Positions 8,280 to 53,227 of a stretch of 53,227 nt of DNA are shown one piece after another. Made by a program: the position numbers and the translations under genes. The stretch is from Anaerolineae bacterium. Lineage in GTDB: Bacteria; Chloroflexota; Anaerolineae; B4-G1; DUEL01. Each line of letters starts with the position of its first letter. The first letter of the stretch is position 1. Location: assembly GCA_041082215.1 (NCBI GenBank), contig JBDOIF010000008.1, positions 70,036-123,262 on the forward strand, written 5' to 3'. The notes under the pieces are model-generated. The model worked only from the letters and a program-made list of their open reading frames with translations. It had not been told where the DNA came from and searched no databases.

Positions 8280-8291
8280 GAAGACCCTCCG

Positions 8292-11775: not shown

Positions 11776-12501
11776 ATGAAGGGTTCCTTTTCGGTGTTGA
11801 CCTACGGATTACTGATCCTGGGCATGGGCGTCTACCTGCTCGGCCTCCTCTTCGGTCGATTTGACGCTGGCCGGATCCACCGCAGCCCCACCTGGGCCCG
11901 GATGGCTTCTTCGGTCGCCCTGGTGCTGGCAGCGCTGGCCTGGTGGCTGGGTGCGGGCCGGTCCACACCGCTGGCTGCCTATACGGCTTTCCTGTTTCTC
12001 GGAATGCTGCTTTCCTTTGTGGGGGACCTGACCATGGCGCAGCTTCTCCCCTTATCCCCTCACGTCCTTTTCGGGATGCTGGCCTTTGGCCTGGCCCACG
12101 TCGCCTATCTGATCGGGTACGGGCAGGCCGCCCGAGCGATGGCGTTGACCGACCCCCGGGCCTGGGCCGGCGGGGTGGGCGGCGCGCTCCTCCTGGCCGT
12201 CCTCCTCTGGTGGGCCCTGATCCGCAGCCCCGGCTCCAGCTCCCCCCTGAGCTACGGCGCTCTGGGCTACGCCCTCCTTCTGGGCGGGATGTTCGGGGCG
12301 GCGCTGGCCCTGGCGGTCCAGGACGCCCGGTTTCTGCAACTGGCCGTCGGAGCTCTGCTCTTCCTGGCCTCCGATGTGATCCTGGGCAACCGCATCTTCC
12401 GGGAAAACGACTGGTTCCTGGTGGGCGATGTCGTCTGGATGCTCTACATTGCCGGGCAGGCCCTCATCGTCTTTTCACCGGCCCACCTGCTGATGCGTTA
12501 G
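11776..12501 (+). CDS. YhhN/lysoplasmalogenase-family membrane protein
   Basis: SFVGDL, GMLAFGLAHVAY, GALLFLASD, Y..GQ motifs; AAGGAGG RBS. Confidence 0.85.
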   Translation: MKGSFSVLTYGLLILGMGVYLLGLLFGRFDAGRIHRSPTWARMASSVALVLAALAWWLGAGRSTPLAAYTAFLFLGMLLSFVGDLTMAQLLPLSPHVLFGMLAFGLAHVAYLIGYGQAARAMALTDPRAWAGGVGGALLLAVLLWWALIRSPGSSSPLSYGALGYALLLGGMFGAALALAVQDARFLQLAVGALLFLASDVILGNRIFRENDWFLVGDVVWMLYIAGQALIVFSPAHLLMR

Positions 12502-12541
12502 AGGCTCCTCTATACGTGGGCTGTGCCAGGAAAGGAGGAGG

Positions 12542-13624
12542 ATGAACGAAGAGGTCTATCGTCGGCTGGCACAGCGGCTGGATACGATCCCCAATGGCTT
12601 CCCGGCCACCGAAAGCGGGGTGGAGCTGCGGCTTCTGGCCAGGATCTTCGCCCCGCAGGAGGCGGCGCTGGCGGCCGAGATGCGGCTGGGCTATGAGCCT
12701 GCTGAGATCATCGCCACCCGCGTCGGCGTGAGCGCCGAGGAGGCGTACCGGACGCTGAAAGAGATGGCCCGCAAAGGGCTGATCCGGGCACGGCGAGGGG
12801 AGGGAGGGCTGGTCTTTGCCCTGTTGCCTTTCGTCGTCGGCTTCTACGAGGGGCAGTTGCGCCGGATGGATGAGGAGATGGCCGTCCTGGTGGAACAGTA
12901 CTTCCGGGAGATCGGCGGGCGGACCATTCTGGACGCCCCGCCGCCCGTCCACCGCGTGCTCCCGGTAGAGGAGGCCATCCCCTACGATCTGGAGGTCTTC
13001 CCCTACGAGCGGGCGGCGGCGCTCATCGAAAGCGCCCGCTCCTGGGGGGTGCGGGATTGCATCTGCCGCACGCAGAAGCGGCTGGTGGGAGAGGGATGCG
13101 ATTACCCGCTGGAGACCTGTCTGGTGATGGCGCCGGTGGAGGGGGCCTTCGCCGGCGATGAGCTGACACGCCCACTGACCAAAGAGCAGGCGCTGGAGAT
13201 CCTGCGAATGACAGAAGAGGTCGGACTGGTCCACACCACCGGCAACTTTCGGGACCGGCATTTCTATATCTGCAACTGCTGCCCCTGCTGCTGCGCGGTG
13301 CTGCGGGGGCTGACAGAGTTCCACGTGCCCACTGCCGTGGCCCGCTCTGGATTCCGCTCGGTGGTGGACGCTGAGGCCTGCATCGGATGCGGGGCCTGCG
13401 TCGAGCGATGCCACTTTGGTGCTCTTTCGCTGCCGGAGGATGTGGCGGTGGTGGATCCGGACCGATGCCTGGGCTGCGGGGTCTGTGCGCCTGCCTGTCC
13501 TGCCGACGCGATCCACCTGGAGCGGCGACCGACCGGGGAGGCCCCGCCGATTCCCGCCACCATCGAGGAATGGATGCTCCATCGGGCAGAGGCGCGGGGC
13601 TTGCCGACGGAGGAAATTCTGTAA
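12542..13624 (+). CDS. 4Fe-4S dicluster domain protein with N-terminal HTH-like region
   Basis: CICR, ICNCCPCCC, CIGCGACVERC, CLGCGVCAPACP. Confidence 0.88.
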   Translation: MNEEVYRRLAQRLDTIPNGFPATESGVELRLLARIFAPQEAALAAEMRLGYEPAEIIATRVGVSAEEAYRTLKEMARKGLIRARRGEGGLVFALLPFVVGFYEGQLRRMDEEMAVLVEQYFREIGGRTILDAPPPVHRVLPVEEAIPYDLEVFPYERAAALIESARSWGVRDCICRTQKRLVGEGCDYPLETCLVMAPVEGAFAGDELTRPLTKEQALEILRMTEEVGLVHTTGNFRDRHFYICNCCPCCCAVLRGLTEFHVPTAVARSGFRSVVDAEACIGCGACVERCHFGALSLPEDVAVVDPDRCLGCGVCAPACPADAIHLERRPTGEAPPIPATIEEWMLHRAEARGLPTEEIL

Positions 13625-38032: not shown

Positions 38033-40420
38033 TCATCGCTCCGTCTCCACCCGGTACCCTCGCCCGTCGCTCACCACCTCCACCGTCCCGTCCCGGTCGG
38101 TGCGATAGACCAGCACCCCCTCCCCCAGCCGGTCCAGCATCTCCACGTGAGGATGGCGGAAGCGATTCTCGACCCCCACCGAAATCACCACCACCTCCGG
38201 ATCCACCGCCTCCAGGAAGGGTTCTGTCGTGGACCCCCCGTCCCCGTGGTGGGCCGCTCTGAGGATGGTACAATCCAGCCACGCCCCCTCCGACACCAGC
38301 CGGCCCTCCACCGCCGCGCTGATGTCTCCGGGCAACAGGAAACAGATCCCGCCGTAATCCAGCCGGAGCACCAGCGAGCGGTCGTTGGTGCTGGCATCGG
38401 TCTCATCCGGGCCAGGGTGGAGGATCGTGAGGAGCAATCCCTCATCCAGCCAGAACCGCAGCCCCGTCTCCCCCCGCCAGACCGGCGCGCCGGACCGCTC
38501 CACCACTTCCCGCCAGCGGGTGCAGAGCCGGGTGCGGCACCCCAGGTCCCGCTCGACCACTCCATCCACCCGGTATCGCTCCAGCACCGGGATCAGCCCC
38601 GCCATCACGTCGTCGTCGGGGTGGGAGAGGATCACCAGGTCGAGGCGGTGGTCCCAGAAGGGGAGGCGACGGCCCAGATGGGCCAGGAGCCGGGAGGGGC
38701 TGGGGCCGCCGTCTATCAGCACCTGACGGCCGGAGGGGGTGCGGATGAAGACGGCGTCCCCCTCCCCCACGTCCAGGAAGGCGACGTGGAGGCGGCCGTC
38801 GGGGAGGGCGCGCCAGGCGGCAGCGGTCAGGATGAGGAGGAGGGCAGAAGCAGCCAGCACCGTCCGGTCGCTCGCACGGCTGGTGAAGCTGCTCCAGACA
38901 GAGCGAACGCGGTCCCCCAACGCCGCCCGGCGGTCGGCGGGCCGGTAGAGCCACCAGGTAACCGTACCGAGCAGCCCGTAGAAGGCCCAGACCATCCACC
39001 CCTCCATCCGTCCCAGATCAACCCAGGCGTAAGGGGCGCGGGCGGTGAGGCGGACGGTCTCGATGGTGTAGGTGAGAGGGAGCCAGGCCACCCACCCCAG
39101 CAGCCGCCCGGCGGGAAGCCAGGCCAGTCCGACCACCGTTGCCAGCCCGCCCCAGATCATCACCGCTGGCTGGACGGGGAGGATGAGCAGGTTGGTGAGG
39201 AGGGTGATCAGAGAGAGGCGGTGGAAGTAGTAGAGGATGATGGGAGTGGTGGTCAATTGGGCGGCCAGAGTGACCAGCAGTGCCTCAGAGATCCAGCCGA
39301 CGGCCCGCCGGGCCTGCCTGCGGGAGGTGACGCGGCTCAGAAGCCGGACCGCGCCCCGCTCCAGGCGCTCGGTGTAGAGGATCAGGCCGACAGTGGCGGC
39401 GAAGCTGAGCTGGAAGCCCACGTCCCAGAGGACGAAAGGGTTGAGGGCGGTCATCAGGACGGCGGCCCCTGCCAGGGAGGCAGGGGCGAAGGTGGCGCGG
39501 CCCAGGCGCTTCCCCCAGAGGTAGAGGCTGCCCATAATCGCCGCCCGCACCACGGCGGCGGAGGCCCCCACGAAGAGGGTGTAGAGGACCACCCCGCCGA
39601 TGGCGATCCAGGTGGACCGCTTCTGGCCCGCCAGCCTGCGGGAGAGACTGGCGAAGATGCCGGAGATGATGGTGATGTTGAAGCCGGAGATGGCGATGAT
39701 GTGGGCGGTGCCGGTGGCGGAGAAATCCTCCATCAGGTCGGCAGGGATGGTGGACTCGATCCCCAGCAGGATGCCGGTAAGCAGGGAGGCGGCCGGTTCG
39801 TGGAGAACCGCGGCGATGACGGCCTGGGCGCGGTGCTTGAGGGCCAGGAGTCCGGCATAGAGAGGGCTGCCCTCCCCGCCGCCGATCCGGGTCGCCCGGG
39901 CCTGCCGCACCAGCGAGTACACCCCCTGCCGGGCCAGGTAGTCCCGGTAGGAAAACTCCTCCCACTCCGGCGGGGTCTCCAAAAGCCCCACCACCCGTAG
40001 CCGGTCGCCATAGGCGAAGGCGGGATAGCGGTCCACCTTCACCAGCGCCAGCCCTGTCACCTCCAGCTCCTGCCCGTCGGGCAGGATGAGCCGCTCGGCC
40101 CGAAGGCGAAGGTTGGCGTAGCCCTCCCGCTCGTCCGGCTCCGCCACAACCACCCCCTCCAGCTCCACGCGCCCGACATCGTTGTAGGTCGCAAGCGTGT
40201 GGGCGTCGAAGCGGGGGAGGGAAAGGAGCAAACGGCCCGCCCCCAGCGCCAGGGCCACCAGGCAGGCGCAGAGGAGCCGGGAGCGGCGGGAGCCCAGCCA
40301 GCCGATCAGGCCGACCAGACCCCCCAGGCCGAGGAGCAGGAGGAGCTGCCAGGGCGGGGAGAAGGCGCGAGCCAGCACGATGCCGGCCAGCCACGAAGCA
40401 GCCAGATAGACAAGGGTCAT
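38033..40420 (-). CDS. comEC: ComEC/Rec2 competence protein
   Basis: OB domain, GTAHIIAISGFN, RAAIMG, GFQLSFAAT, LDVGEGDA, HHG, HPH. Confidence 0.95.
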   Translation of the reverse strand: MTLVYLAASWLAGIVLARAFSPPWQLLLLLGLGGLVGLIGWLGSRRSRLLCACLVALALGAGRLLLSLPRFDAHTLATYNDVGRVELEGVVVAEPDEREGYANLRLRAERLILPDGQELEVTGLALVKVDRYPAFAYGDRLRVVGLLETPPEWEEFSYRDYLARQGVYSLVRQARATRIGGGEGSPLYAGLLALKHRAQAVIAAVLHEPAASLLTGILLGIESTIPADLMEDFSATGTAHIIAISGFNITIISGIFASLSRRLAGQKRSTWIAIGGVVLYTLFVGASAAVVRAAIMGSLYLWGKRLGRATFAPASLAGAAVLMTALNPFVLWDVGFQLSFAATVGLILYTERLERGAVRLLSRVTSRRQARRAVGWISEALLVTLAAQLTTTPIILYYFHRLSLITLLTNLLILPVQPAVMIWGGLATVVGLAWLPAGRLLGWVAWLPLTYTIETVRLTARAPYAWVDLGRMEGWMVWAFYGLLGTVTWWLYRPADRRAALGDRVRSVWSSFTSRASDRTVLAASALLLILTAAAWRALPDGRLHVAFLDVGEGDAVFIRTPSGRQVLIDGGPSPSRLLAHLGRRLPFWDHRLDLVILSHPDDDVMAGLIPVLERYRVDGVVERDLGCRTRLCTRWREVVERSGAPVWRGETGLRFWLDEGLLLTILHPGPDETDASTNDRSLVLRLDYGGICFLLPGDISAAVEGRLVSEGAWLDCTILRAAHHGDGGSTTEPFLEAVDPEVVVISVGVENRFRHPHVEMLDRLGEGVLVYRTDRDGTVEVVSDGRGYRVETER

Positions 40421-42387: not shown

Positions 42388-43704
42388 CCGGCGGTCACTT
42401 CGCGTCCCCTGCCCGGGCGGAGCAGCGACGGAGGCGGCAGCGCGCCCCTCCCAATCGAGCGGGATCGGATGATCCAGCATCCCCGCCAGCTCCCTCAGGT
42501 CAGCCTCGGCATCGGTGAAGACGATGGCATGCATCCCGAGGGCCTGGGCTGCGTCGGTATTGCGCACCAAGTCGTCCAGCAGGACCGCCTCTTCAGGCCT
42601 GACCCCCAGCCGGTCCAGCACCAACTGATAGATGGCCGGGTCCGGCTTGGCTAGCCCCACCTCCGCTGAATTGACATAAACATCAAACTCGGCCCGCGGG
42701 TCGAAGCCGTATCGCTTCTGAACCACCTCGGCGTGGCCCGGGAAGGCATTGGTCAGCAGCGCGACCCGATAGCGGCTCCGCAACGCCCGTGCTGTCGCCA
42801 GGACCCGCTCGTCCAGAGGATCGTCAGCGTAATACTCCTGGTAGAACCGCTGGACCGCTTCCCGGTCCGGCAGGCCGAGGCTACGGGCCACGTGGAGGTC
42901 ATACGCCTCAGATGAGATAGCCCCTACTTCGAGCTGTTTCCATTCCCGCCCCCAGAGGACCCGGTCCAGGGCCCCCCCAGCCAGGCCAAGACGCTCTTCC
43001 CACTCGTGGGTCCGCTGGAGGAAGGTCAGAGGGGCAAGAACCCCGCCCCAGTCGAAGATGACGGCGCGGATGGACGGTAGGGGATGAGGAAGGGGAATCC
43101 CCACAGGAAGGCCTGCGGACGCCAGCGCGCGCCGCAGGTGGGCGATCCCCCGGAAGCGGACGCCAGTCATCCCCAGCCGTTGAGCTGCCACCACATTGCC
43201 CTTCAGGTCGTCCACAAAGAACGCCTCGGCAGGTTCCACGCCCAACCGCTCCAGCACACGCTGGTAGATGAGGGGATCAGGTTTCCGGACCCCCTCCAGG
43301 GCGGAGACGACTTTCACGTCGAACAGGTCGGACAGGCCCAGGGAAGACAGTAGCTCCGGCAGGTTGGAGGCGTGGTTGCTGAGGAGAGCGGTGCGCAGAC
43401 CGAGCTGGCGCAACCGGCGGATCAGCGCGACCAGCTCCTGATCCAGCCGGTCGCCCCTCCAGAAGTCCTGGCTGAGGGCAGCCAGTTCGCTTTTCCCCAG
43501 CTTCAGACGGAGGGCCAGCTCCGCCCACACCTCTGCTAACGATATTTCCCCAAGCTGTGCCCGCTCCCAGGCCTGGCTCTGGAAAAAGAGGTCCGCCAGG
43601 TCGCCGGGGAAGAGGTTCAGCCGTCGCTCCCAGGCCAGGCGGGGTCGGATGTCGGCGGTGCGCATCAGCACACTGCCCCAGTCGGTGATGAAGGCACGGA
43701 TCAT
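42382..43704 (-). CDS. Tandem double HAD-family phosphatase
   Basis: DWGSVL/LSN/KP/FVDD followed by DWGGVL/LTN/KP/LLDD. Confidence 0.88.
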   Translation of the reverse strand: MIRAFITDWGSVLMRTADIRPRLAWERRLNLFPGDLADLFFQSQAWERAQLGEISLAEVWAELALRLKLGKSELAALSQDFWRGDRLDQELVALIRRLRQLGLRTALLSNHASNLPELLSSLGLSDLFDVKVVSALEGVRKPDPLIYQRVLERLGVEPAEAFFVDDLKGNVVAAQRLGMTGVRFRGIAHLRRALASAGLPVGIPLPHPLPSIRAVIFDWGGVLAPLTFLQRTHEWEERLGLAGGALDRVLWGREWKQLEVGAISSEAYDLHVARSLGLPDREAVQRFYQEYYADDPLDERVLATARALRSRYRVALLTNAFPGHAEVVQKRYGFDPRAEFDVYVNSAEVGLAKPDPAIYQLVLDRLGVRPEEAVLLDDLVRNTDAAQALGMHAIVFTDAEADLRELAGMLDHPIPLDWEGRAAASVAAPPGQGTRSDRRL

Positions 43705-44414
43705 TCGGGAGCCTCCGAGTCAGGGAAGAGGTTGAGCAGTTCGGAGAACCGTTCCAGTGTGATCACCCGGTCGGGGTCGGCAAAGGGCACCCTCTCGAAG
43801 CTCCACGGCTCTGGAGAGGGGATATAGATGGCGCCAAAGCCGACCTTGAGGGCGGGGTTGATGTCGGAACGGGGGCTATCACCCACCACCCAGGTCTCTC
43901 GGGGGGCCAGGCCATAGTGGCCCATCAGTTCCCGCAGCACGTCCGGCCCCTTTTCCGGCACTACGTGGATCGCTTCGAAATAGGGAGAGAGGCCGGAGCG
44001 GGTCAGTTTATCCTGCTGAATCCGGGGATCTCCTTTCGTGAGGAGAATGAGGCGGCACCGTTGGGAGAGAGCAGGTATTGTCTCAGCCACACCATCCAGA
44101 AGGATAATGGGGAAATCGAGCACCTGCCGCCCGATGGCCTCGACCTCTTCTTCCACCTGAGGGTCGGGCTGGCGGCCGTGGAGCTGGCAGAGCTTCCGGT
44201 AAGCGACCGCTTTGCTGCGGGCAAACTCGATGGGCGAATAACCCGCCAGCGGCACGCGCTCCCGTTCGACCTCTTCAAAGATTTCCCGGGCCTCGGCAGG
44301 GCTGAACCCCTCACGGGCCATCCGTTCAACGAAAGCCTGGGTTGCCTTTTCGTAGAAGACGTTTGTTACCCAAAGGGTATCGTCGGCATCGAGAATGAGC
44401 GTCGGTTTTCCCAT
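43701..44414 (-). CDS. HAD-family hydrolase
   Basis: DADDTLW, LTKGD, VGDSPRSD. Confidence 0.9.
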   Translation of the reverse strand: MGKPTLILDADDTLWVTNVFYEKATQAFVERMAREGFSPAEAREIFEEVERERVPLAGYSPIEFARSKAVAYRKLCQLHGRQPDPQVEEEVEAIGRQVLDFPIILLDGVAETIPALSQRCRLILLTKGDPRIQQDKLTRSGLSPYFEAIHVVPEKGPDVLRELMGHYGLAPRETWVVGDSPRSDINPALKVGFGAIYIPSPEPWSFERVPFADPDRVITLERFSELLNLFPDSEAPE

Positions 44415-44526
44415 ACAGGGGCCAATTATACCCGACTTCGGAGAAAAAGCGAACCGCACGCGGGATGGAAACCGTCGGGCGATTAGGAAAAAGGTACTAT
44501 TTGGGCAAATAGATGGCCTGAAAGTC

Positions 44527-44554
44527 TTGACAGCAAAGGGACGGCGATTATAAT
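44527..44554 (+). promoter_or_regulatory. Consensus sigma70 promoter of the downstream operon
   Basis: TTGACA-16 nt-TATAAT, both hexamers perfect. Confidence 0.8.
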
Positions 44555-44576
44555 GGGAACTGCAAATTGAAACGTC

Positions 44577-44623
44577 GGCCGGAAGGAACCTTGAGCAAAA
44601 GGGCTCGCCTTCCGGCCTTTTTT
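44577..44623 (+). terminator. Leader terminator/attenuator hairpin
   Basis: GGCCGGAAGG...CCTTCCGGCC followed by T6, between the promoter and the first gene. Confidence 0.75.
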
Positions 44624-44654
44624 GTTTCCGGGCCTTCGTTTCCGGGAGGGAGAT

Positions 44655-45080
44655 ATGTTGAACGTCGTCATCGTCGAGGGATATGTGACCAGCAAAATCT
44701 GGCGCTGGAGCGGGGACCTCTGCTTCCGGCTGGCGTCGTATCGGGATTCACACCTGCCGCAGAAGCCGCCGCCTCCTCCGGGGACCAATCACGATCAGAC
44801 GGCGGATTATATGACGGTGCGGGTCCTCGGAGGGGCGCCGGGAGGGGTGCCGGTGGCGATCCAGCCCGGGCAGAGGGTACGCATCCACGGTTTCCTGGGC
44901 AGCCGCCCCTGGCGACGGACGCTGGCCGAGGTAGCACAGTTCACCCAGGGGCAACCCGTCCGCTGGGCATCGGGCTTCGACCCCGCCCAGGCAATCCTGG
45001 AAGATGAGGTGGTAGACGTGATCGCCGAACGGGTCATCGCCCTGGCAGCGCCATCTGGGGAGGGACCTGGGGAAATGTAA
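44655..45080 (+). CDS. Divergent SSB-like OB-fold protein
   Basis: MLNVVIVEGYV..FRLA..DYMTVRV..GQRVRIHGFL..VIAERV pattern resembles the SSB OB fold; GGGAGG RBS; no acidic DIPF tail. Confidence 0.6.
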   Translation: MLNVVIVEGYVTSKIWRWSGDLCFRLASYRDSHLPQKPPPPPGTNHDQTADYMTVRVLGGAPGGVPVAIQPGQRVRIHGFLGSRPWRRTLAEVAQFTQGQPVRWASGFDPAQAILEDEVVDVIAERVIALAAPSGEGPGEM

Positions 45081-45133
45081 AGCGGGTTTCTCCGATCCGG
45101 GCTGATGTCGCTCCGTCGGGCGTTTCGCAACGT

Positions 45134-45174
45134 AGGCCGGTCCTTCCACCATCTGGAAGCTGGCCTTTTTCTTT
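45134..45174 (+). terminator. Second terminator hairpin related to the leader hairpin
   Basis: AGGCCGG-tc-CTTCCA-ccatc-TGGAAG-CTGGCCT followed by TTTTCTTT. Confidence 0.7.
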
Positions 45175-45436
45175 GCCTCTGCACATTACCAGGCCTGGGA
45201 GAACGGAGTCTGTTCTCCCGGCGCATATTCAGCCGGGCCTGTTTGCCTGGTTTCTCCATCCCTTCTCCTTTTCAGGGGATCTCCGCCCGCACTGGGCGTG
45301 GGTCCACGTCGGCGTGATAGGCCACGTCGGCGGTGCTTCGTTCGACCGGGGTGGGAGGGCATCCCACCACGGGCAGCATTCCTCACGCAGGAAGGGCTGC
45401 TGGACTCCACAAAACTAAAGAAAGGAGAGGTTAAGG

Positions 45437-45883
45437 ATGGAGGACATCTTATCAACGGTACTGTCTTCGGCCCTTGTGCTGGTAGTGGTGGTTCTGATCC
45501 GCCACTGGGGAGGGCCGTCGGTCGCCCGTCGGCCGGCGGTGGCAGGCGTGCTTGTGGCCCCGGCCACTCCCTTCGCCACAGCCTGCCTGGCCCACAGACG
45601 GGACCCCTCGTCCTGTCTGAGTTGCGGGCTGTGCCAGCAGTGCTGGGGCCTGAGGAGCGTACCGGCAGCGGAGGAGATCGAGGGCAGGCCCGGCGGCATC
45701 GCCGACAGGAGCAGGGCTTCGCTCGATCCGGTGGTGAATCTGGAGCGGGTCGAGCGGCTCCTGAAAGCGGCGGACGGCCTGCTGAGCCGATTCCTCGAAC
45801 TCCTCAACGTGCTGCCGGTCCAGCAGATCGTCCACGCCTTCGGACGGTTGCTCCAGCTCCTGCTGGCGCGTGCCTCCGGGTAG
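45437..45883 (+). CDS. Hypothetical membrane-anchored protein with Cys cluster
   Basis: Strong AAAGGAGAGG RBS, N-terminal TM, CLSCGLCQQC. Confidence 0.6.
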   Translation: MEDILSTVLSSALVLVVVVLIRHWGGPSVARRPAVAGVLVAPATPFATACLAHRRDPSSCLSCGLCQQCWGLRSVPAAEEIEGRPGGIADRSRASLDPVVNLERVERLLKAADGLLSRFLELLNVLPVQQIVHAFGRLLQLLLARASG

Positions 45884-45968
45884 GTCCGTGGAGATCGGAG
45901 CCCCTCTGCGGGCGGGAGTGCCCTCCCACTCCTGCCCGATCCAAACAAGCAACCAGCAACCAGCGCCA

Positions 45969-46637
45969 ATGAACGGTCTGCTCGACATTCTGATTCTCAC
46001 CACCAATGGCCTGTTGGTGATCCTGTACTGGCTCTGGGCCCACCTGCCGGTGGCCCTCTCCTGGGGGCTTGCGGCGGGGGTGACGATGCTGCTGGACACC
46101 GACGTATCCCGTCGGGCCGGCCACCGGCCTGCCCGCTACGGACGCAGGGCTGTTCAGAGGGAGTCACGCACCGCCTACCTGGGCACCCCCCTCCTGGCCC
46201 TCCTCTGGACGGCCGTTGGGCTGGCCGCCCCGCCCCCCATCCCCCTCATCGGCCTGGCGATGTGGGCCTGCCTGCTGCTGGCGCCGCTGACCGTTCCGAT
46301 GGAGCGGGAGCCGCTGCTTTCCCGCCTCAAGTGGATGCTGGCGGTCTACGCAGCGGCAGCGGGGGGGTTCCTCCTGCTCCTGCGCTCCCAGCTTTCCCCT
46401 GCCGCTCTGGCCGCCTGGTCCCAAAGCCTGGGACGGGCAGGGGCAGGGGAGGCGCTGGAGGCGGCGGTGGTCTCCTCGGTGGTCCCCTACGCGGCGCTGA
46501 TGCTCTGGGTCATCGGCCCGCTGATGTTCTTTGGCTACGTCGCCCAGCGGTTCGCCGTCCACGCCAAGACGCGGGTCAGCCCCTGGGCAACGGTGGAGGA
46601 GCGCATCCGCCAACTGCGGGCGCGTGGGGAGGAATGA
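45969..46637 (+). CDS. Hypothetical polytopic membrane protein
   Basis: About 5-6 hydrophobic segments; ends 3 nt before the ATPase start. Confidence 0.75.
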   Translation: MNGLLDILILTTNGLLVILYWLWAHLPVALSWGLAAGVTMLLDTDVSRRAGHRPARYGRRAVQRESRTAYLGTPLLALLWTAVGLAAPPPIPLIGLAMWACLLLAPLTVPMEREPLLSRLKWMLAVYAAAAGGFLLLLRSQLSPAALAAWSQSLGRAGAGEALEAAVVSSVVPYAALMLWVIGPLMFFGYVAQRFAVHAKTRVSPWATVEERIRQLRARGEE

Positions 46638-46640
46638 GCG

Positions 46641-49600
46641 ATGGCGCGAAAATCCGGCCCCGTCTCTTCTGACCTGGCACCGGACGATCTGGTCGTCCTG
46701 GACAACGGCATCCGGTTCGCGGAGGATCAGGACCGGATGGAGTACCTCTGGTTCCACCTGCGGGAGCTGGAGGACGGGCGGGAATACGACCTGTGGCGGG
46801 TGGTGCGCCTGGGACTCCTGCGTTATCTCCCGCAGGAGCACCGTCAGGAGCCTGGCCTGCCGGAGAAGATGCGCGCCGCGCTGGTCGGGCTGTACGGCTC
46901 CCGGCGGGCCAGCTACGATCTGGTGGAAATCAAGGCGGGAATCTTCAACCCACCGCTGGGCGTGCTCCAGATGTTCGGCGCCGTCGGCATCGCCGAATCC
47001 CAGGAAGAGGCCATCCGCAACGCCGAGCTGGGAATGGCTGCGGTGCAGGGAGCCATTGCTAACTTCGAGCAGTCGCGGCTGATCCCGCTTTCGGTCCAGA
47101 TCGCTGACTGGCTCCGGCGAGCGCTGGCGGAGTTCCCCCACGTCATCGTGACCATCGGCCACCCGGAACCCCGCGCCGGCAGGCGGGGGATGGGCCGGGA
47201 AGGGCCGGGGGAGAGGGACCGGAGCACTGTCCCCCAGGATGCGATGCTCCCGCCCCAGCAGGGGGAAATGCTCTGCCGGGCGCTGGCGGCCGTCCAGGAA
47301 GAGTTTCTGATGGTGACCCTGGCCTCCCGCGTTCTCCAGCAGGACCTGGCGCGGATGCTGGCCGGGATCGCGGCGGAGGCGAGCGTCCCTGCCAGCCAGA
47401 TGACGGGGGTGGAGGCGATCACCACGGGGATCGCCCTGCCGGTCAGCCTGGCCGAGAGCCTGGGGCGGAGCGCGGTGTCGGCCTACGGCCAGACCCAGGG
47501 CACGGCCGTCTCCGACTCCTTCGCCGACTCCGAGGCGACCAGCCACGTGGAGGGCCACGCCACCACCGTCGGCCACGCGGTGACCGACGGGACGGCCCAC
47601 ACCGAGGGGCACGCCACCACGTCGGGGAGTTCGGTGACGACCAGCGTCGTCACCTCCGAGGGCACGGCCCATACCGAGGGGACGGCCCATACCGAGGGGA
47701 CGGCCCACACAGAGGGGACGGCGCATACTTCCGGTAGCTCGTCGTCCGTGTCGAGTGCTTCCGGAAGCAGCTGGGGGGTGATACAGGGACTAGCCAACAC
47801 CACAGGGACGGCCCACACAGAGGGGACGGCCCATACCGAGGGGACGGCCCACACAGAGGGGACGGCGCATAGTACCGGAGGCAGCCAGGGGACCACCACG
47901 ACGCGCGGGGCGTCTTTCGGCGCTCATATAGGGCAGCACGTCGGTGGCTCTATCGGCGGAGGCATCGTCCCGGGCACCTTGAGTTCTGGCACGGATTACG
48001 GGGTTGAGGGATCGTTCAACTCCAGCCAGTCGGTCAGCAATTCTCACGAATGGAGTTCGTCCACCTCTACCGCCGATACGTCCTCGGCGGCGGACACCAC
48101 CTCTGCCGCCGATACGTCCTCGGCGGCAACTACGCAGTCAGTCGCTACAAGTGTTGGCGGATTCAGCTCAACCTCGGTGTCATCTTCGTCCTTCTCCTCT
48201 GTCAGCCGCTCCATCGCCGACACTGTCTCCGCCGCCGACACGACCTCCCAGGCCGATACCACCTCTCGCTCGGTCAGCCGGGGTGTCTCCCACGGTTCCT
48301 TCTCGTCCACCACCCACTCCGTCGCCGACACCCTCTCCCACGCCGAGACCCGCTCCTGGGCACGCACCACCAGCGTTGCCGACGGGACGGCCCACGGGAC
48401 CACCCGCGCCCACGGCGTCTCCCGCTCCTCCGGCACAGCGGTCGGGCGGAGCCTGGGGGTGATGCGGGGGACGGGATTCGGCGCGGCGGCGGTCCCTTCC
48501 TTCGCCCTCACCCGCTCCTACCAGTGGTGGAACGACCAGGCGGTGCAGCTTGCCCAGCTCCTTCGCGCCCAGGAGGAGCTCTTGCGACAGGCCACCCTCG
48601 AAGGGGCTTTCCTGACCGACGTGTACATCCTCACCCGCACTGAGCGGGGGGCGGCGGCGGCGGAGGTGGCGGTCCGGCAGGCGTTTCAGGGCGTCGGGCC
48701 CCTGGTGGTCACGCCCGTCCAATCCCGCGTCCTGCGCCTTCCCCAGGAGCAGGCATACATCCGCGCCCACGCGATGGCCTTCACCCCCTCGACGCGCCGC
48801 GAGCGTGTGGCGGGCGCGCTGGAGGCGTACAGGGACTCGACGCTGCTTTTGCCCACGCAGCTGGCAGCTTATGTCGCCCCCGTCCTCTTCGAGGAAGGGC
48901 TTTCCGTCACCACCCAGGAGCGCATCCCCGCCTTCGCCTTCGTGCCGGATATGCCCGGCGATGTCGTGCTGGCCCACCAGTGGTCCACCGAACGGGCGGA
49001 GCTGACCGGGGCCCCGCTGCGGATGTCGTCGGACCGCTTCTTCCACACCGTCTTCGCCGCCGACACCGGCTTCGGCAAGACCGTCGCGGCGGAGCGGCTG
49101 GTGGTGGAGACGACCCGGAAGTGGCACTTCCGCACGGTGGTGCTGGACTTCGGGGCAGGGTGGCGCAGGCTGCTCAACGCTCCCCTGGGAGAGCCGGGGC
49201 GGGTGGAGGTGTGGCAGCTCTTCCCCGGCGCAGCGGTCCCCTTCCGCTGGAACCCCTGGCAGGTGGGGAAGCGGATTCAACCGGAGCGACAACTGGTGGC
49301 GACGTGCGAGATTTTCAAGAACGCCGGGCGGATGGGCCCCCGGCAGTTGGGCTTTATGCGCCGGGCGGCCCGACAGCTCTACCTGGAGCACGGCATACTG
49401 ACCTCCGACCGGGAGGTCTGGGCCGACACGAGGTGGAATACGGTGCGCGACGCCGACGAGGAAGAGGCCATCAACGCCGCCCGGCGGGAACGGGGAATGG
49501 CGGAGCGGACCTGTGTCGGCGACCACCTGGGCGACCTGGAAGGGTTTGAGCGCCAGGCACTGGCCGTCCACCGCTCCCGGCGGGTGGGTATGGCCGCCTG

Positions 49601-50399
49601 GGTGGAGCGGCTGGGGTCGTACAAGCCGGAACTGGAGAAGCGGCGCGACCAGGCGTCGCTCCAGTCGCTGGAAGGAGTCCTGCTCCGGCTGGAACCGTTC
49701 ACCCAGGGCGAGATGGCCCGGATGTACGGCTCCGGCGAGGACACGCTGGCGGTGGAGGACCTGGGGCTCCTGGGGCCGTCCGACGACCCCTGGGGGGTCT
49801 CCATCCTGGAGGGCGGGGCGGAGCTGGACGAGTACGCCAAGGCCGCCATCCTGGGGCTGGTGGCCTGGCACCTGTACAACGACGCAGTGGTGCGACGGCG
49901 GCAAAACATCGGCAGGTCCACCCCCGACCCGACGCTCCAGATTGTGTTCGAGGAGGCCAACAAGGTGCTGACAGGGGTGGAGACAGACACCTCGGAGAAC
50001 CAGACGGGCGGGGCGACGACGGTGGAGCTCTTCCAGGCGATGTGGCGGGACGGGCGGAAGTACCGGATTTTCCTCCACCCGGTGGTGCAGACGGTCTCCG
50101 AACTCCCGCCGGGGATCCTCTCCTCCTGCAACAACGGCTTTTTCGGGCAGACGAAGAACCCGAAGGACCGGGACCTGATTATGGCGCACCTGGCCTTCAG
50201 CGAGAAGGGGTTTACCGACGAGGACTACAAACGGTTCCTCAGCCGGATGCCGGCGGCAATGGCGGTGTGCAAGCTGGGGTATTCCCAGGACATCGTCCAT
50301 ACCACGCCGTTCCTGGTGCGGCCGCTGATGGTCCCGGCCCGCGAGCCGACCGACGAGGAAATCCACGAGGCGATGCGCCTGATGGGGAAAGCCAGGTAG
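46641..50399 (+). CDS. HerA/VirB4-like P-loop ATPase with ~350-aa Ser/Thr/Gly-rich symmetric insert
   Basis: HTVFAADTGFGKT Walker A (49059-49082), VVLDF, IVFEEAN Walker B, RDGRKY Arg finger, VVQ; insert at aa 267-619. Confidence 0.85.
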   Translation: MARKSGPVSSDLAPDDLVVLDNGIRFAEDQDRMEYLWFHLRELEDGREYDLWRVVRLGLLRYLPQEHRQEPGLPEKMRAALVGLYGSRRASYDLVEIKAGIFNPPLGVLQMFGAVGIAESQEEAIRNAELGMAAVQGAIANFEQSRLIPLSVQIADWLRRALAEFPHVIVTIGHPEPRAGRRGMGREGPGERDRSTVPQDAMLPPQQGEMLCRALAAVQEEFLMVTLASRVLQQDLARMLAGIAAEASVPASQMTGVEAITTGIALPVSLAESLGRSAVSAYGQTQGTAVSDSFADSEATSHVEGHATTVGHAVTDGTAHTEGHATTSGSSVTTSVVTSEGTAHTEGTAHTEGTAHTEGTAHTSGSSSSVSSASGSSWGVIQGLANTTGTAHTEGTAHTEGTAHTEGTAHSTGGSQGTTTTRGASFGAHIGQHVGGSIGGGIVPGTLSSGTDYGVEGSFNSSQSVSNSHEWSSSTSTADTSSAADTTSAADTSSAATTQSVATSVGGFSSTSVSSSSFSSVSRSIADTVSAADTTSQADTTSRSVSRGVSHGSFSSTTHSVADTLSHAETRSWARTTSVADGTAHGTTRAHGVSRSSGTAVGRSLGVMRGTGFGAAAVPSFALTRSYQWWNDQAVQLAQLLRAQEELLRQATLEGAFLTDVYILTRTERGAAAAEVAVRQAFQGVGPLVVTPVQSRVLRLPQEQAYIRAHAMAFTPSTRRERVAGALEAYRDSTLLLPTQLAAYVAPVLFEEGLSVTTQERIPAFAFVPDMPGDVVLAHQWSTERAELTGAPLRMSSDRFFHTVFAADTGFGKTVAAERLVVETTRKWHFRTVVLDFGAGWRRLLNAPLGEPGRVEVWQLFPGAAVPFRWNPWQVGKRIQPERQLVATCEIFKNAGRMGPRQLGFMRRAARQLYLEHGILTSDREVWADTRWNTVRDADEEEAINAARRERGMAERTCVGDHLGDLEGFERQALAVHRSRRVGMAAWVERLGSYKPELEKRRDQASLQSLEGVLLRLEPFTQGEMARMYGSGEDTLAVEDLGLLGPSDDPWGVSILEGGAELDEYAKAAILGLVAWHLYNDAVVRRRQNIGRSTPDPTLQIVFEEANKVLTGVETDTSENQTGGATTVELFQAMWRDGRKYRIFLHPVVQTVSELPPGILSSCNNGFFGQTKNPKDRDLIMAHLAFSEKGFTDEDYKRFLSRMPAAMAVCKLGYSQDIVHTTPFLVRPLMVPAREPTDEEIHEAMRLMGKAR
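47664..48275 (+). repeat. Intragenic 18-bp/hexapeptide tandem repeats (TAHTEG blocks and mirrored TxSxAD blocks)
   Basis: ACGGCCCA(T/C)AC(C/A)GAGGGG units at 47664-47735 and 47808-47879; TSSAAD-like units at 48060-48131 and 48204-48275. Confidence 0.9.
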
Positions 50400-50434
50400 G
50401 GGCGACCGGCAGGTCGCCCGTACAGGTCGCCCGT
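50396..50434. repeat. GTAG-type REP palindrome overlapping the ATPase stop codon
   Basis: GTAGGGGCGACC-ggca-GGTCGCCCGTAC (50396-50423) followed by a repeated half AGGTCGCCCGT. Confidence 0.8.
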
Positions 50435-50444
50435 GAGGGAGCCG

Positions 50445-51860
50445 ATGCGGATCATTCTGGCAGGACCGGATGAAGCAGAGCTGACGGGAGCGGCCTACCC
50501 GGCCTTTGCGGTGGCCGGGGTGGAGGTGCTGGCAGCGGTCGGGGCGGCGGAGAAGCTGTCCGACCTGGCCCCCGTCTTCCCCGACGCGGTGGCTGTGGTC
50601 CAGGCCGACCTCTACGCCACGCCGGAGGAGGCGGTGGAGGCGCTGGAGGGGTTGCCTGTTCGGGTGGCCGTTGTGCTTCCGCCCCGGTGGGCGGCGGCTC
50701 AGGGGAAGTTCGCCGCCCTTCCCAACCTGGTGGCGGGCTTCACCGCGCCGATTCCCTGGCCGGTGGTGGCAGCGGAGGTGAAGACACAGGCTGGTCTGGG
50801 CGACCTGCCGGTCGCTCCAACATCACAGGCGGAGGCAGGGGCGCAGCCCGGCGTTGGGGCGACCTGCCGGTCGTCCCAACTGGACGGCGCACCAGTCGCT
50901 CCCCAGGCAGCCCTACGGCCCACCCCCGACCCCGCCGGCAGGGCCAGGGGTGGAGGGGGTCGGCTGGTTGCCCCACGGGGCGAGGCCCCTAGGCCACGCC
51001 TCGAGCGGCTCGCCGCGTGGCGAGCCGTGGCCCTCTGGTCCGGCCCGGCGGGAGGCGTGGGGAAGACGAGCCTGGCCCTGCTGCTGGCGGCATACGCGGC
51101 GGAGAGGGGAGCGGAGCCGCTGTTGCTGGCCCTATCAGAGCCGGCCGTGTCGGCCTATCTGGGGCTGAACCGTGTCCCCAACGTCACCGCGTTCTTCGAG
51201 ACCGGCGATCTGAGCCGGTCCGTCCAGATACTGAGGTGGGAGGAGGGTGGGAGAGGGATGCTGCGGGTGGCCCTCGGTCCGGCCCGGCCCCGCGACGGGG
51301 CGGTGGGACGGGAGCAGGTGGCGGCGCTGATGGAGGCGGCGAAGGGCGCTGCACCTCTGGCCGTCGCCGACCTGCCCACACTCCCGCCCGGAGGCAACGC
51401 CTGGAGCCTGGAGCCGCTGCTCCACGCCGGGGTCGTCATCCTGGTGGCCGCTCCCACACCGGCGGGCGTGGCGGCTGCGGTCGAGGCGCTGGCGACGCTG
51501 CGGGACATCGGGGCCTCCGGCCAGGTCCTCCTGGCCGTCAACAGACGGACACCGGGTGGGCTGGGCCTGCCGGAGTTTGCCGATGGGGTGCGGGGCCTGT
51601 GGGGGGGCTGCCCGCCGACGGTGGAGGTCCCCTATGCGCCCGGGATGGCTGCGGCGATGGACCGGGGGGAGCTGCCGGGTATGGGCGACATGCCGGTCGC
51701 CCCTGCGCTGGCTGAACTGGCGGAGGCCGCTCTGGGCATCCCCCGGCCCCGGCCGGAGGCGGAGCGGGAAGGAACCGGGACGGGTAAGGGCGACCGGCCG
51801 GTCGCCCCTGCCCGCCCCCGCCGCCTGGGGCGGCTGATCAGCGTGGAGGTGGTGGACTGA
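50445..51860 (+). CDS. TadZ/CpaE-like MinD/ParA-family protein with degenerate receiver-like N-terminus
   Basis: WSGPAGGVGKTS deviant Walker A, VADLP, LAVNR, VPY; Pro/Ala linker. Confidence 0.72.
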   Translation: MRIILAGPDEAELTGAAYPAFAVAGVEVLAAVGAAEKLSDLAPVFPDAVAVVQADLYATPEEAVEALEGLPVRVAVVLPPRWAAAQGKFAALPNLVAGFTAPIPWPVVAAEVKTQAGLGDLPVAPTSQAEAGAQPGVGATCRSSQLDGAPVAPQAALRPTPDPAGRARGGGGRLVAPRGEAPRPRLERLAAWRAVALWSGPAGGVGKTSLALLLAAYAAERGAEPLLLALSEPAVSAYLGLNRVPNVTAFFETGDLSRSVQILRWEEGGRGMLRVALGPARPRDGAVGREQVAALMEAAKGAAPLAVADLPTLPPGGNAWSLEPLLHAGVVILVAAPTPAGVAAAVEALATLRDIGASGQVLLAVNRRTPGGLGLPEFADGVRGLWGGCPPTVEVPYAPGMAAAMDRGELPGMGDMPVAPALAELAEAALGIPRPRPEAEREGTGTGKGDRPVAPARPRRLGRLISVEVVD

Positions 51861-52306
51861 TGGGCGAGGTCTGGGGGCAGGTCCGTCCGGTTCCCCGTCT
51901 GCTGGCCAGCCTCCCCTGCGAGGACGCGGCGGTGTCGCAGGGGGTGGCCGACGGCCGCGTGACCCTGCAGCGGGTCTTTTTCGACCTCTATGCGGCCCGC
52001 TTCCCGGCCGGGTTCGATCGGATGACGGTGGTCAGCTTCTGGGCCGGAGGGGAGGGGGCCTACCGGACGGCTGTGCGGCTCCTGGCCCCCGGCGGGACGG
52101 AGGTGGCCCGGGGGGAGGCGGAGGTGACCGCCGTGCCCCCACCGGGGACAGCGGTGCAGGTGGTCTATTTCCCCACCCTGGTCCTGCCGGAACCGGGTCG
52201 GTACACGGTAGAGGTTCTTCTGGACGGCACGCCGGTCCACGCTTACAGCCTGACCGTCGTCGGACCGGAGGAATCCAGCAGGGAGGGTGCAGATGCGAAA
52301 AGGTGA
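51860..52306 (+). CDS. Hypothetical beta-sandwich protein (DUF6941-like)
   Basis: LPCEDA..DGRVTL..VF, LPEPGRYTVEVLLDG; TGATG coupling to the upstream gene. Confidence 0.6.
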   Translation: MGEVWGQVRPVPRLLASLPCEDAAVSQGVADGRVTLQRVFFDLYAARFPAGFDRMTVVSFWAGGEGAYRTAVRLLAPGGTEVARGEAEVTAVPPPGTAVQVVYFPTLVLPEPGRYTVEVLLDGTPVHAYSLTVVGPEESSREGADAKR

Positions 52307-52874
52307 GCAAATCGGGATGTGGGTGGCCATCGGTATCCTGGGGGTGTGGCTTCTGGTGCTGACTGTGGTGATAGCGGGGGAGTTCGCCGCCGTCAACCGG
52401 GTGCTGCGGGGGGAGGTGGAGGCGGAGGCGCTGCCCGCTGCACCGGGCGAGCCGACCCCCTGGTGGGGCGGGACGGAAGCGACAATATCCCCGCCCACGG
52501 CCTCGCTGCCGGAAGGAATCTCCGTGGGGGTCGCCGGGGTGCGGGTCCTCTCCGATACCCTGGCGATGACGGTGACGGTCCGCTCCGGCGGGGCGGGCGA
52601 CCTGCTGGTCGAGCCGCCGGTGGTGGTGGATGAGGCGGGCCGGGCCTACCCGGTGACGCCCGACAGCCTGGAGGCGGCGCGGTATGCCTTCCTGGACCTG
52701 GTGACGCGGGGGCAGGCAGGGGCAGAGCTGGTCTTTGCCGGAACCCCACCGGAGGGAGCACGGCTGACGCTGGTCTTTAACCCCAACCAGGAGCCAACCG
52801 ACATCCTGGCCCCCCGTGTCGAGGTGCCGGTGCCGGTGATCGCCGCTCCAGCGCCAGGTTCGGAAGGAGGATAA
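52293..52874 (+). CDS. Hypothetical membrane-anchored protein with extracellular Ig-like domain
   Basis: N-terminal TM, Pro/Thr linker, beta-rich domain (VVDEAGRAYP, AELVF, LTLVF). Confidence 0.7.
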   Translation: MRKGEQIGMWVAIGILGVWLLVLTVVIAGEFAAVNRVLRGEVEAEALPAAPGEPTPWWGGTEATISPPTASLPEGISVGVAGVRVLSDTLAMTVTVRSGGAGDLLVEPPVVVDEAGRAYPVTPDSLEAARYAFLDLVTRGQAGAELVFAGTPPEGARLTLVFNPNQEPTDILAPRVEVPVPVIAAPAPGSEGG

Positions 52875-52888
52875 AGGGGGGGTGGAAA

Positions 52889-53107
52889 TTGCCTGCGAAG
52901 GAAGTGGCAGACGCTCTCCTCGCCCTCGACGAGCCGTGGCGAAGCCGCTTTCTCAAGCTGACGGCCAGCATAGCTACCGGATGGTCCTGGAACGGGCGGG
53001 GAGAGCCGACGAGAGAAGAGCTGGAAGAATGGCTGAAGGACAACCTGAAGTTGCAAGGGTATGTAACGGTGCTGCTTCAGACCTGGACGGGCGGGAGATT
53101 GCCGTAG
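52889..53107 (+). CDS. Small hypothetical protein
   Basis: Helical 72-aa ORF filling the gap; purine-rich RBS before TTG. Confidence 0.55.
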   Translation: MPAKEVADALLALDEPWRSRFLKLTASIATGWSWNGRGEPTREELEEWLKDNLKLQGYVTVLLQTWTGGRLP

Positions 53108-53119
53108 AGAGGTGAAAGG

Positions 53120-53227
53120 ATGCGAGGTATAACTGCTGCTGCCATCGGCGCTCTGCTCCTTCTGGCCCTGGTTGTGCTTCTGCTGCCGTCGGGCGAGACC
53201 CGTCCGGCCCTGGCCGCGCCGGTCCGG
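53120..53227 (+). CDS. Secreted/membrane protein, 3'-truncated by the window
   Basis: GAGGTG RBS; MRGITAAAIGALLLLALVVLLLPSGETRPALAAPVR signal-like N-terminus. Confidence 0.6.
   Translation, partial: MRGITAAAIGALLLLALVVLLLPSGETRPALAAPVR

Follow-up and report, generated by a model that had tools for sequence, protein, structure and literature searches.

We analyzed a cluster of nine co-oriented genes (44527-53227, + strand) that closes a 53,227-nt stretch of DNA from an Anaerolineae bacterium, the whole of which is referred to below as the window. The largest gene of the cluster, g4, encodes an ATPase of the HerA/VirB4 type. Comparison with other genomes showed, at the level of gene content and order, that a motor of this type, a small membrane protein as its partner, TadZ, Tad pilus genes and a protein of the SSB family (SSB, a protein that binds single-stranded DNA) are associated in two phyla. 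Judged by its gene order, the window holds a reduced copy, here called type A, of a conserved accessory module of Tad/Flp pilus loci. We favor, at a probability of about 45%, the reading that the cluster is a DNA-translocation module working with Tad pili, in the manner of the archaeal Ups and Ced systems together or of transjugation in Thermus. A first-pass annotation of this DNA had proposed a hybrid Tad-pilus/single-stranded DNA (ssDNA) translocation system, to be given up if the genes were not conserved together elsewhere or if they matched a described class with nothing extra; the genes proved to be conserved together in both Chloroflexota and Bacillota, and neither of the two contrary outcomes was found.

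Conservation of the cluster in two phyla

Nineteen distinct loci encoding the ATPase were compared (L050 and L058 duplicate L015, and L051 duplicates L012; each was counted once). A gene for a small polytopic membrane protein like that of g3 lies upstream of the ATPase gene in 13 of the 19, and a TadZ-like gene lies just downstream of it in 14 of the 15 loci whose sequence extends far enough. The ATPase gene stands directly upstream of CpaB in 11 loci (L021 and L054 are short contigs that end at CpaB), and the series CpaB-TadZ-CpaF(-TadB-TadC) follows it in nine, including a paralogous locus on contig C57 of the same genome and two Bacillota megaplasmids. CpaF occurs within 10 of the 19 loci and an SSB-family gene within nine. 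As the 19 loci, which come from two phyla, keep these genes in order, the association goes beyond chance. The Tad half of the hybrid system suggested by the first-pass annotation is thus well founded (nine of the 11 loci with CpaB also have TadZ and CpaF), as is its view that an SSB accompanies the cluster, whereas the other half stays conjectural: translocation of ssDNA by the cluster would be one way of reading these genes.

Loci in which the ATPase gene precedes the Tad genes are here called type B. On C57, the genes run in the order F11, g3-like, ATPase (38% identity), CpaB/RcpC, TadZ, CpaF, TadB-like, DUF6941-like, TadC-like, g7-like and g8-like, with Pfam matches to RcpC (2.8e-10) and SAF, to AAA_31 for TadZ (3.1e-10) and to T2SSE for CpaF (3.8e-30), and with two T2SSF-like proteins. 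The same placement, directly 5' of CpaB-TadZ-CpaF-TadB-TadC, is found in G157, G301 and G318, at two loci of G234 and in G043, which is a complete genome. In several type B loci, Flp-like pilins, an A24 peptidase and TadE-like pseudopilins come next, with an SSB-like gene at the far end. The Bacillota carriers are the megaplasmids pRUMAL01 of Ruminococcus albus 7 and pB6464 of Alkaliphilus, both of which encode SSB, three or four hypothetical proteins, the 'serine-rich protein' (as the ATPase is named there), a CpaB-sized protein, TadZ, CpaF, TadB, TadC, a pilin and an A24 peptidase. The last hypothetical protein before the ATPase is, in R. albus, a small membrane protein in the position of g3 that matches the g3 family at E 3e-4, and its Alkaliphilus counterpart is recognized by size and position only. 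Both megaplasmid clusters come directly after the plasmid's own DnaE and primase genes, accompanied in pB6464 by a topoisomerase IA gene.

The type A order of the window is SSB-like, g2, g3, ATPase, TadZ-like, DUF6941 and g7, without CpaB, CpaF, TadB or TadC. The same order was found again in L012 and L015, and parts of it in L013, L014, L016 and L052, with ATPase identities of 55-88% among these relatives. No CpaF/TadA, TadB or TadC was found in window 44527-53227 or on C173, the short contig onto which the cluster runs. The continuation into CpaB, CpaF, TadB, TadC and Flp that had been expected from the first-pass annotation is not there, and DUF6941, a transmembrane (TM) protein, a 72-aa protein and secreted proteins occupy its place. 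In a FastTree phylogeny built from the C-terminal 600 residues of 19 ATPases, with the root placed on the two Bacillota sequences (the fragments L017-L019, L049 and L053, the N-terminal piece of L037 and duplicates were omitted), type A formed a clade with support of 0.95-1.0 nested within type B, and type A is therefore taken as a derived, reduced form of a Tad-linked ancestor.

The NCBIfam model matched by g4, NF033849, scored above its cut-off in six of 301 sampled genomes of the phylum and in none of 14 controls. The motor was present in eight of 41 genomes when the genome under study (G000) is counted, that is, in seven of 40 close relatives; the figures were five of 24 within the same family and two of 13 within one genus. 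Some carriers show a type A copy alone. The named relatives that carry the ATPase are metagenome-assembled genomes of Anaerolineae and Thermoflexia.

Several additional genes were observed in type B loci. After the SSB-like gene of L035, a locus of G234, there are genes for a Rad52/Rad22-family and SWIM zinc finger protein and for a RadC-JAB and DUF6573 protein (4510-5655; 7454-9010). Rad52/Rad22 and RadC-type proteins are typical of the processing of incoming DNA or of mobile elements. A relationship of family F28 to the Rad52-like protein of L035 was considered and dropped, since hhalign of the two gave a probability of 3%; PDB sequence searches with F28 and F18 returned chance-level matches only. 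A conserved protein of ~425 aa (L033 7079-8365, L036 3918-5186, L037 5433-6203) has the C-terminal consensus PDVxVERDGERxYVEVER, which we take to resemble a PD-(D/E)xK nuclease motif, with no database support. In one G234 locus, a ClpP-family protease gene (L037 900-1499, - strand) separates the gene for the small membrane protein from that for the ATPase.

The ATPase and the other cluster proteins

The 1252-aa product of g4 (46641-50399, +) matched NF033849 (ser_rich_anae_1, 'serine-rich protein') at 1178.5 bits against a cut-off of 650 and over positions 1-1162 of the 1163 in the model, and the C57 paralogue passes the same model once its segments are summed. NF033849 carries no function assignment. 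With the full protein, no Pfam family was found at E <= 0.1, CagE_TrbE_VirB, AAA_10 and DUF87 included. The family comprises at least 440 clusters at 90% identity, none with a Pfam domain; where names are given, they are 'serine-rich protein' or 'hypothetical', with one 'ATP-binding protein'. At E <= 1e-30 there were 235 representatives, and the best 150 listed were all family members, with no outgroup among them.

An alignment of nine homologues divided g4 into a conserved N-domain, a variable linker and a C-terminal motor of ~640 aa, the aligned full-length members being about 1100-1480 aa long. The N-domain (46641-47489, +; aa 1-283) is of alpha/beta type, has no TM segment and is conserved in all nine. 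The linker (47490-48461, +) is of low complexity, rich in Ser, Thr and His and variable in length among homologues; it contains GTAHTE-type repeats, encoded by 18-nt tandem repeats at 47656-47728 and 47805-47866. The motor (48462-50399, +) is, by sequence and fold matches, a P-loop ATPase of the HerA/VirB4/DndH type. Its Walker A motif reads DTGFGKT (G812 and K813 invariant) and its Walker B motif FEEANK (E1104 and E1105 invariant), and all nine homologues have GK(T/S) and EE at these sites.

Searched against the PDB, a profile of the C-terminal part matched HerA/DUF87 chains only (best E 5.4e-11, ~100 residues), with no VirB4 among the sequence matches of the motor at E <= 1, and the PADLOC HerA model matched g4 at E 4.9e-7 over ~120 residues only. 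The AlphaFold2 (AF2) model of the motor had a mean predicted local distance difference test score (pLDDT) of 77, above 85 across most of residues 160-645 and low at the start that follows the linker. Its top Foldseek match was archaeal HerA (4d2i, E 1.4e-13), and VIA-align gave Z 28.3 with DndH-C, 27.1 with VirB4 of Thermoanaerobacter (4ag5), 24.7 with HerA, 22.2 with TrwB and ~17 with FtsK. On account of these Z scores, the modelled motor is assigned to the HerA/VirB4/DndH branch of the FtsK-HerA superfamily, within which the fold alone cannot separate the three. By Pfam, g4 is not HerA proper, having no DUF87/HerA central-domain match and only partial HerA matches of ~100 residues; nor is it VirB4 by sequence, since no CagE_TrbE_VirB N-domain was matched, and the likeness to VirB4 lies in the highly similar motor fold alone.

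The AF2 model of the N-domain had a pLDDT of 63 and yielded weak fold matches to an ESX-5 chain (Z 6.9), to the TrwK/VirB4 N-domain (Z 6.1 over 169 residues) and to type III secretion system (T3SS) chaperone/YbjN-like proteins (~Z 6). A PDB sequence search with this domain found nothing, and an Atlas search led to unnamed clusters only. No TM segment was predicted in 13 of 14 members of the ATPase family. The predicted complex of the N-domain with g3 returned no answer (score 0.00) and weighs neither way.

Directly upstream of g4 lies g3 (45969-46637, +; 222 aa), which encodes a small polytopic membrane protein with about 4-5 TM segments; the ORF was listed as 45870-46637, and the likely start is the ATG at 45969. 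The eight members of its alignment (A6) were drawn from both type A and type B loci. Downstream, g5 (50433-51860, +) encodes a TadZ/CpaE-like protein composed of a receiver-like N-domain, a variable linker and a ParA/MinD ATPase domain whose Walker A motif is GPAGGVGKT, with the signature Lys replaced. By itself g5 reached CbiA at E 0.0066, below the cut-off; it aligns end to end with TadZ of full Tad loci, which pass the AAA_31, CbiA and ParA thresholds. In contigs from two hot-spring DNA runs of a separate study, the g5 linker is extended by an in-frame insertion of 18 nt after 50804.

The first gene of the cluster, g1 (44655-45080, +; 141 aa), encodes an OB-fold protein that is a putative divergent member of the SSB family. 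The listed ORF (44622-45080) opens with TTG at 44622, and the likely true start is the ATG at 44655, which is preceded by GGGAGGGAG. Against the Pfam SSB family (PF00436), g1 scored 13.6 bits (E 0.07), under the cut-off of 26. A five-member profile found six SSBs among its seven PDB matches, all marginal (E 0.12-0.7), and hhalign of the g1 family with the four true SSBs of this genome gave a probability of 88% (E 3e-6) over 79 columns of the OB core. The positionally equivalent Bacillota genes are positive for Pfam SSB, at 34.7 and 39.7 bits. Taken together, g1 has an SSB-like OB fold and is a candidate member of the SSB family.

The remaining products are smaller and less familiar. g2 (45437-45883, +; 148 aa) has two predicted N-terminal TM segments, a cluster of four invariant Cys (C-x9-C-x2-C-x5-C) and a helical tail; it is present in type A loci only and had no Pfam, NCBIfam, PADLOC or PHROG match. 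g6 (51860-52306, +) belongs to DUF6941 (PF22091; E 8.6e-14, 52.4 bits against a cut-off of 27), and its Atlas neighbors are all DUF6941; homologues occur inside Tad loci on C57 and in L059, and a PDB sequence search with DUF6941 gave chance-level matches only. g7 (52287-52874, +) encodes an N-terminal TM anchor with a conserved extracytoplasmic domain of ~110 aa. Its alignment (A8) has five members, including the protein that follows TadC on C57, and it had no PDB sequence match. g8 (52889-53107, +) encodes a 72-aa protein that has a copy on C57 (87% identity). A third copy (47% identity) lies outside both clusters, on contig C156 of this genome (~12385-12573), and the two hot-spring DNA runs mentioned above have one additional G in the g7-g8 spacer (window 52875). 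Apart from the partial HerA matches of g4, PADLOC had no match for the cluster proteins or for the two proteins of C173, and PHROG returned weak matches only, four for g4 and two, to tail families, for the open C173 protein. The product identities put forward in the first-pass annotation (SSB-like, Cys-cluster TM, polytopic membrane, HerA/VirB4-like ATPase and TadZ-like) all hold at the coordinates given here.

Leader elements, transcription and the contig end

Genes were called by ORF listing and by a method based on GC content at third codon positions (GC3), which agreed on eight + strand genes between 44.6 and 53.1 kb; the ninth ORF starts at 53120, crosses the contig end and continues on C173. 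Spacing is tight from g3 onward in places, with a gap of 4 nt between g3 and g4 and overlaps of 1 nt between g5 and g6 and of 20 nt between g6 and g7. Upstream, two haloacid dehalogenase (HAD) hydrolase genes lie on the opposite strand, so that the earlier description of at least nine co-oriented, mostly tightly spaced genes divergent from their upstream neighbors stands. About 4 kb upstream of the cluster, a full-length ComEC/Rec2 gene (38033-40420, - strand; Competence 5.5e-57, DUF4131, Lactamase_B) was observed, and the genome therefore has the canonical DNA-uptake channel. ComEC was considered as a part of the system and rejected, as the L012 locus has different neighbors.

The perfect promoter reported earlier was recovered as a sigma-70-type promoter-like site, TTGACA-16-TATAAT (44527-44554, +), which matches at 12 of 12 positions and is the sole such site within 44300-53227 (shuffled sequences had a mean of 0.5 at a looser threshold). 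L012 has a similar -35/-10 pair at the corresponding place. Between the promoter and g1 lies a GC-rich, attenuator-like leader hairpin (44577-44623, +) with the stem GGCCGGAAGG/CCTTCCGGCC followed by a T-run; the segment 44560-44660 folds at -39.4 kcal/mol (z -2.1). The stem and T-run, like the promoter, are conserved in L012, where the loop is altered, and this conservation suggests attenuation control of g1. Directly 3' of g1, a terminator-like hairpin with a U-run (~45134-45174, +) folds in the window and likewise in L012 and L015, and the inner stem differs among the three by compensatory changes. With two conserved terminator-like hairpins separating the promoter from g2, g1 may form a transcription unit that is separate, attenuated or largely independent. 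The hairpins are thus a caveat to the single operon that had been proposed earlier.

A third element, 5' of g2, is a conserved non-coding block of ~130 nt (45275-45405, +) that is predicted to form a multi-hairpin leader and is shared by the window, L012 and L015 with 1-nt indels. Both-side changes were found at four pairs of its final hairpin. The block contains a CACGTCGGCG direct repeat, which could alternatively be a putative protein-binding site. Of 35 metagenome pattern matches to this leader, 28 failed nhmmer, four were partial and three were full-length copies, bringing the set to six sequences, about four of them distinct. No credible Rfam match was found for 45275-45405, and the Rfam matches in the region (the ST7-OT3_4 long non-coding RNA model and Atu_L6) lay far below gathering scores and were taken as chance. 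In a hot-spring RNA-seq library, short contigs fell on g1, the g1-g2 spacer, g2, g3, g4 and g7 (22 of 30 locus bins) and none on 43000-44022; they hint at expression of the cluster, with DNA carry-over possible.

The window comprises the last 53 kb of contig C7 in a genome of 3.5 Mb, 174 contigs and 96% completeness; its GC content is ~66% and climbs to 72% at the window end. The public sequencing runs that contain window DNA carry the label hot-springs metagenome. The last 147 bases of C7 (53081-53227) are present as an exact copy at the end of C57 and at one end of C173 and mark an assembler-collapsed repeat at the contig end: the two paralogous loci, in the window and on C57, share a near-identical middle section that was collapsed in assembly. 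DNA contigs from two runs of a separate study (P2) likewise break at 52930. C173 (1789 bp) encodes a 253-aa signal-peptide protein, the 5' end of which is the ninth ORF of the window (53120-53227, +), and the start of a larger secreted protein. Two short contigs, C120 and C41, are likely continuations of the window locus past C173; both carry the end of a Big_13-type adhesin gene (identical in the two) and a gene for a 208-aa TM protein, and C41 has A24 peptidase and TadE-like genes in addition.

Possible functions and relation to known systems

If the cluster moves DNA, the N-domain of g4 would attach the motor to a Tad machine by way of the membrane protein, the TadZ hub or both, leaving the motor tethered by a linker much as that of FtsK is. 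The motor would then pump DNA across the cytoplasmic membrane, and the SSB-like protein would coat the single strand. Tad pili, together with the large Ig-like adhesin encoded downstream, could provide cell contact or DNA capture. As the window copy has no CpaB, CpaF, TadB or TadC, it would rely on pilus machinery encoded elsewhere, for example at the C57 locus. Transfer could take either direction, import as in Ced or export as with TdtA of Thermus. We lean toward DNA as the substrate because the solved relatives closest in sequence translocate DNA, because SSB, Rad52, RadC and replication-gene neighbors recur, and because precedents exist. In the available portions of the respective papers, these include Flp-pilus-dependent transformation (PMC4322843), DNA import by Ups pili and Ced (PMC11868833, PMC9905601) and the DNA-donation ATPase TdtA (PMC5365140). 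More tentatively, the module may be a previously unrecognized DNA-transfer apparatus, built from a Tad pilus machine, a linker-tethered HerA/VirB4-type DNA pump, a small membrane partner and an SSB of its own. Equally tentative is the idea that such an apparatus extends from Chloroflexota chromosomes to Bacillota megaplasmids, as a bacterial counterpart of Ups and Ced or a relaxase-independent mating system outside the known mating-pair-formation (MPF) classes.

Several observations weigh against DNA translocation. The motor fold is indistinguishable from that of VirB4, whose established role is in pilus and channel biogenesis, and the fold matches of the N-domain, at best Z 6.9, lie inside the noise range of the tool. 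The SSB score of g1 is below the Pfam cut-off, and its C-terminus, SGEGPGEM, is without the acidic tail typical of SSB. The two terminator-like hairpins that part g1 from the rest weaken the case for strict co-expression of the SSB-like protein, and the window copy has no pilus motor in cis. Finally, an extra import channel is not obviously needed, since the genome has a canonical ComEC.

The same likeness to VirB4 (Z 27.1, as close as to HerA) is the starting point for the alternative that survives best, which we nevertheless consider unlikely. On this account, the ATPase is a VirB4- or EccC-like motor that moves no DNA and extracts or exports pilins, the Ig-like adhesin or other secreted proteins, acting as a second motor of a monoderm Tad machine. 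It would fit the weak N-domain matches, all of them secretion-related (ESX-5, the TrwK/VirB4 N-domain and T3SS chaperones), the signal-peptide proteins and the large surface protein of the Big_13/Ig-like kind that are conserved downstream in type A and type B alike, and the DUF6941 and g7 homologues that lie among TadB and TadC genes. However, it leaves unexplained the SSB-family gene, found in nine loci of two phyla, and the Rad52/RadC neighbors, and the PDB sequence matches of the motor are all to DNA-translocating HerA, with none to VirB4. We also know of no studied system in which Tad pili need a second motor.

A further reading is that the cluster is the transfer apparatus of a mobile element, an atypical integrative and conjugative element (ICE) or a megaplasmid conjugation system, whose mating-pair-formation and DNA-pump module is chromosomally integrated here. 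Indeed, the two plasmids that carry the Bacillota clusters are 420 and 436 kb in size, genes for DnaE, primase, SSB and topoisomerase IA lie next to the clusters, and pRUMAL01 is typed as MOBP-mobilizable, without a recognized type IV secretion system (T4SS) or mating apparatus. The distribution is patchy among close relatives, two diverged copies occur per genome, the G043 locus is flanked by a transposase and a type I restriction-modification system, and the flanking genes differ between the window and L012. Nevertheless, the window locus, which is flanked by ordinary chromosomal genes (HAD hydrolases, ComEC), showed neither an integrase, a relaxase or a type IV coupling protein nor an att-like repeat, and no match to phage records was obtained. 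In the three marker families searched, the relaxase PF03432 was found in none of five carrier genomes, the VirD4-type PF02534 matched once, in the complete genome G043 and ~2.2 Mb away from its locus, and the VirB4 N-domain PF03135 was absent from the whole of the genome under study. The atypical ICE entertained in the first-pass annotation therefore finds no support, and a mobile element is in our judgment improbable.

Two further alternatives are very hard to sustain. A HerA-based anti-phage or anti-plasmid defense module that merely adjoins pilus genes would be in keeping with the patchy distribution and with top sequence matches to defense-system HerA (the PADLOC HerA match and the Sir2-HerA and DUF4297-HerA structures), yet those PADLOC matches span only ~120 residues, no Sir2, DUF4297, NurA or other effector partner was found, and the fixed order with membrane and Tad genes in two phyla argues for a functional link to the pilus. 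That the copy in the window is a duplicate of the full locus now in decay and without a function of its own, as its lack of CpaB, CpaF, TadB and TadC beside the full paralogue on C57 might imply, is scarcely credible when every gene is intact, the reduced order recurs in at least six more loci at 55-88% ATPase identity with conserved regulatory leaders, type A is the sole copy in some carriers, and RNA-library contigs cover the locus.

A sizeable ATPase family has so far been named only 'serine-rich protein'. Chloroflexota, which have been little studied, are major members of the communities of hot springs, sludge and sediments. Should the module move DNA, it would represent a new route of gene exchange in Chloroflexota and Clostridia and a bacterial parallel to the archaeal pilus-plus-Ced arrangement; if it is a second pilus motor instead, the picture of monoderm Tad machines would be altered. 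A cultivated carrier, Ruminococcus albus 7 (pRUMAL01), makes the question testable. Tad pili are widespread organelles of adhesion and DNA uptake, and in the descriptions available in part, no HerA/VirB4-type motor or SSB belongs to them. The combination was not found described in the literature on Tad, HerA, CpaF, DUF6941 and pRUMAL01, subscription-only papers and supplements being outside the scope of the search, and the available text of PMC4858521, PMC6668835 and PMC12857230 mentions HerA as a superfamily relative only.

The closest known systems include the Tad/Flp (type IVc) loci, such as Cpa of Caulobacter and Tad of Aggregatibacter. The full relatives of the window locus keep the usual order of these loci, with CpaB/RcpC, TadZ/CpaE, CpaF/TadA, TadB and TadC together with a Flp-like pilin, an A24 prepilin peptidase and pseudopilins of the TadE type. 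In contrast, known Tad/Flp loci, as listed in the accessible part of PMC6668835, include no HerA/VirB4-type ATPase, partner polytopic membrane protein or SSB. In the window, g5 is the probable TadZ counterpart, and the genes for the pilus motor and platform have been lost.

Among the other known systems, VirB4 of T4SSs has a similar C-terminal motor fold (4ag5, Z 27.1 over 349 residues, root-mean-square deviation 3.3), and the N-domain of g4 weakly resembles that of TrwK (Z 6.1). The layout is also VirB4-like, in that a small membrane protein gene lies directly upstream of the ATPase gene here, as VirB3 lies directly upstream of VirB4. Unlike VirB4, g4 has no CagE_TrbE_VirB, AAA_10 or DUF87 match, and no tested T4SS marker was found near the locus (VirB6 and VirB8 were not searched for). 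TdtA of Thermus thermophilus, compared by description, is presumably a member of the HerA/FtsK superfamily; it has a nuclease partner, and none is seen at the window. In the available part of its report, TdtA is a DNA-donation ATPase that acts without a classical T4SS, the recipient using its competence system (PMC5365140), and ComEC is present here too. TdtA is encoded on an ICE, according to the available text of PMC7767461, whereas the window has no ICE context.

FtsK/SpoIIIE and TraB of Streptomyces are built like g4, with an N-terminal part that serves as an anchor, a long linker of low complexity and a hexameric motor, and TraB offers a precedent for relaxase-free DNA transfer (PMC12857230, in the part available). 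The fold of g4 is, however, more distant from FtsK (Z 17), its N-domain is soluble rather than membrane-spanning, and no gamma-domain-like element was identified. A parallel to the favored reading is Ups with Ced (CedA, CedA1, CedA2 and CedB), which, in the accessible portions of PMC11868833 and PMC9905601, joins a type IV-filament contact pilus to a polytopic membrane protein and a HerA/VirB4-like DNA-moving ATPase. Compared with that system, again by description only, the cluster analyzed here belongs to a module in which pilus and motor genes share one locus, and its ATPase has no TM segment and has a long linker rich in Ser, with an SSB-family gene included in the module.

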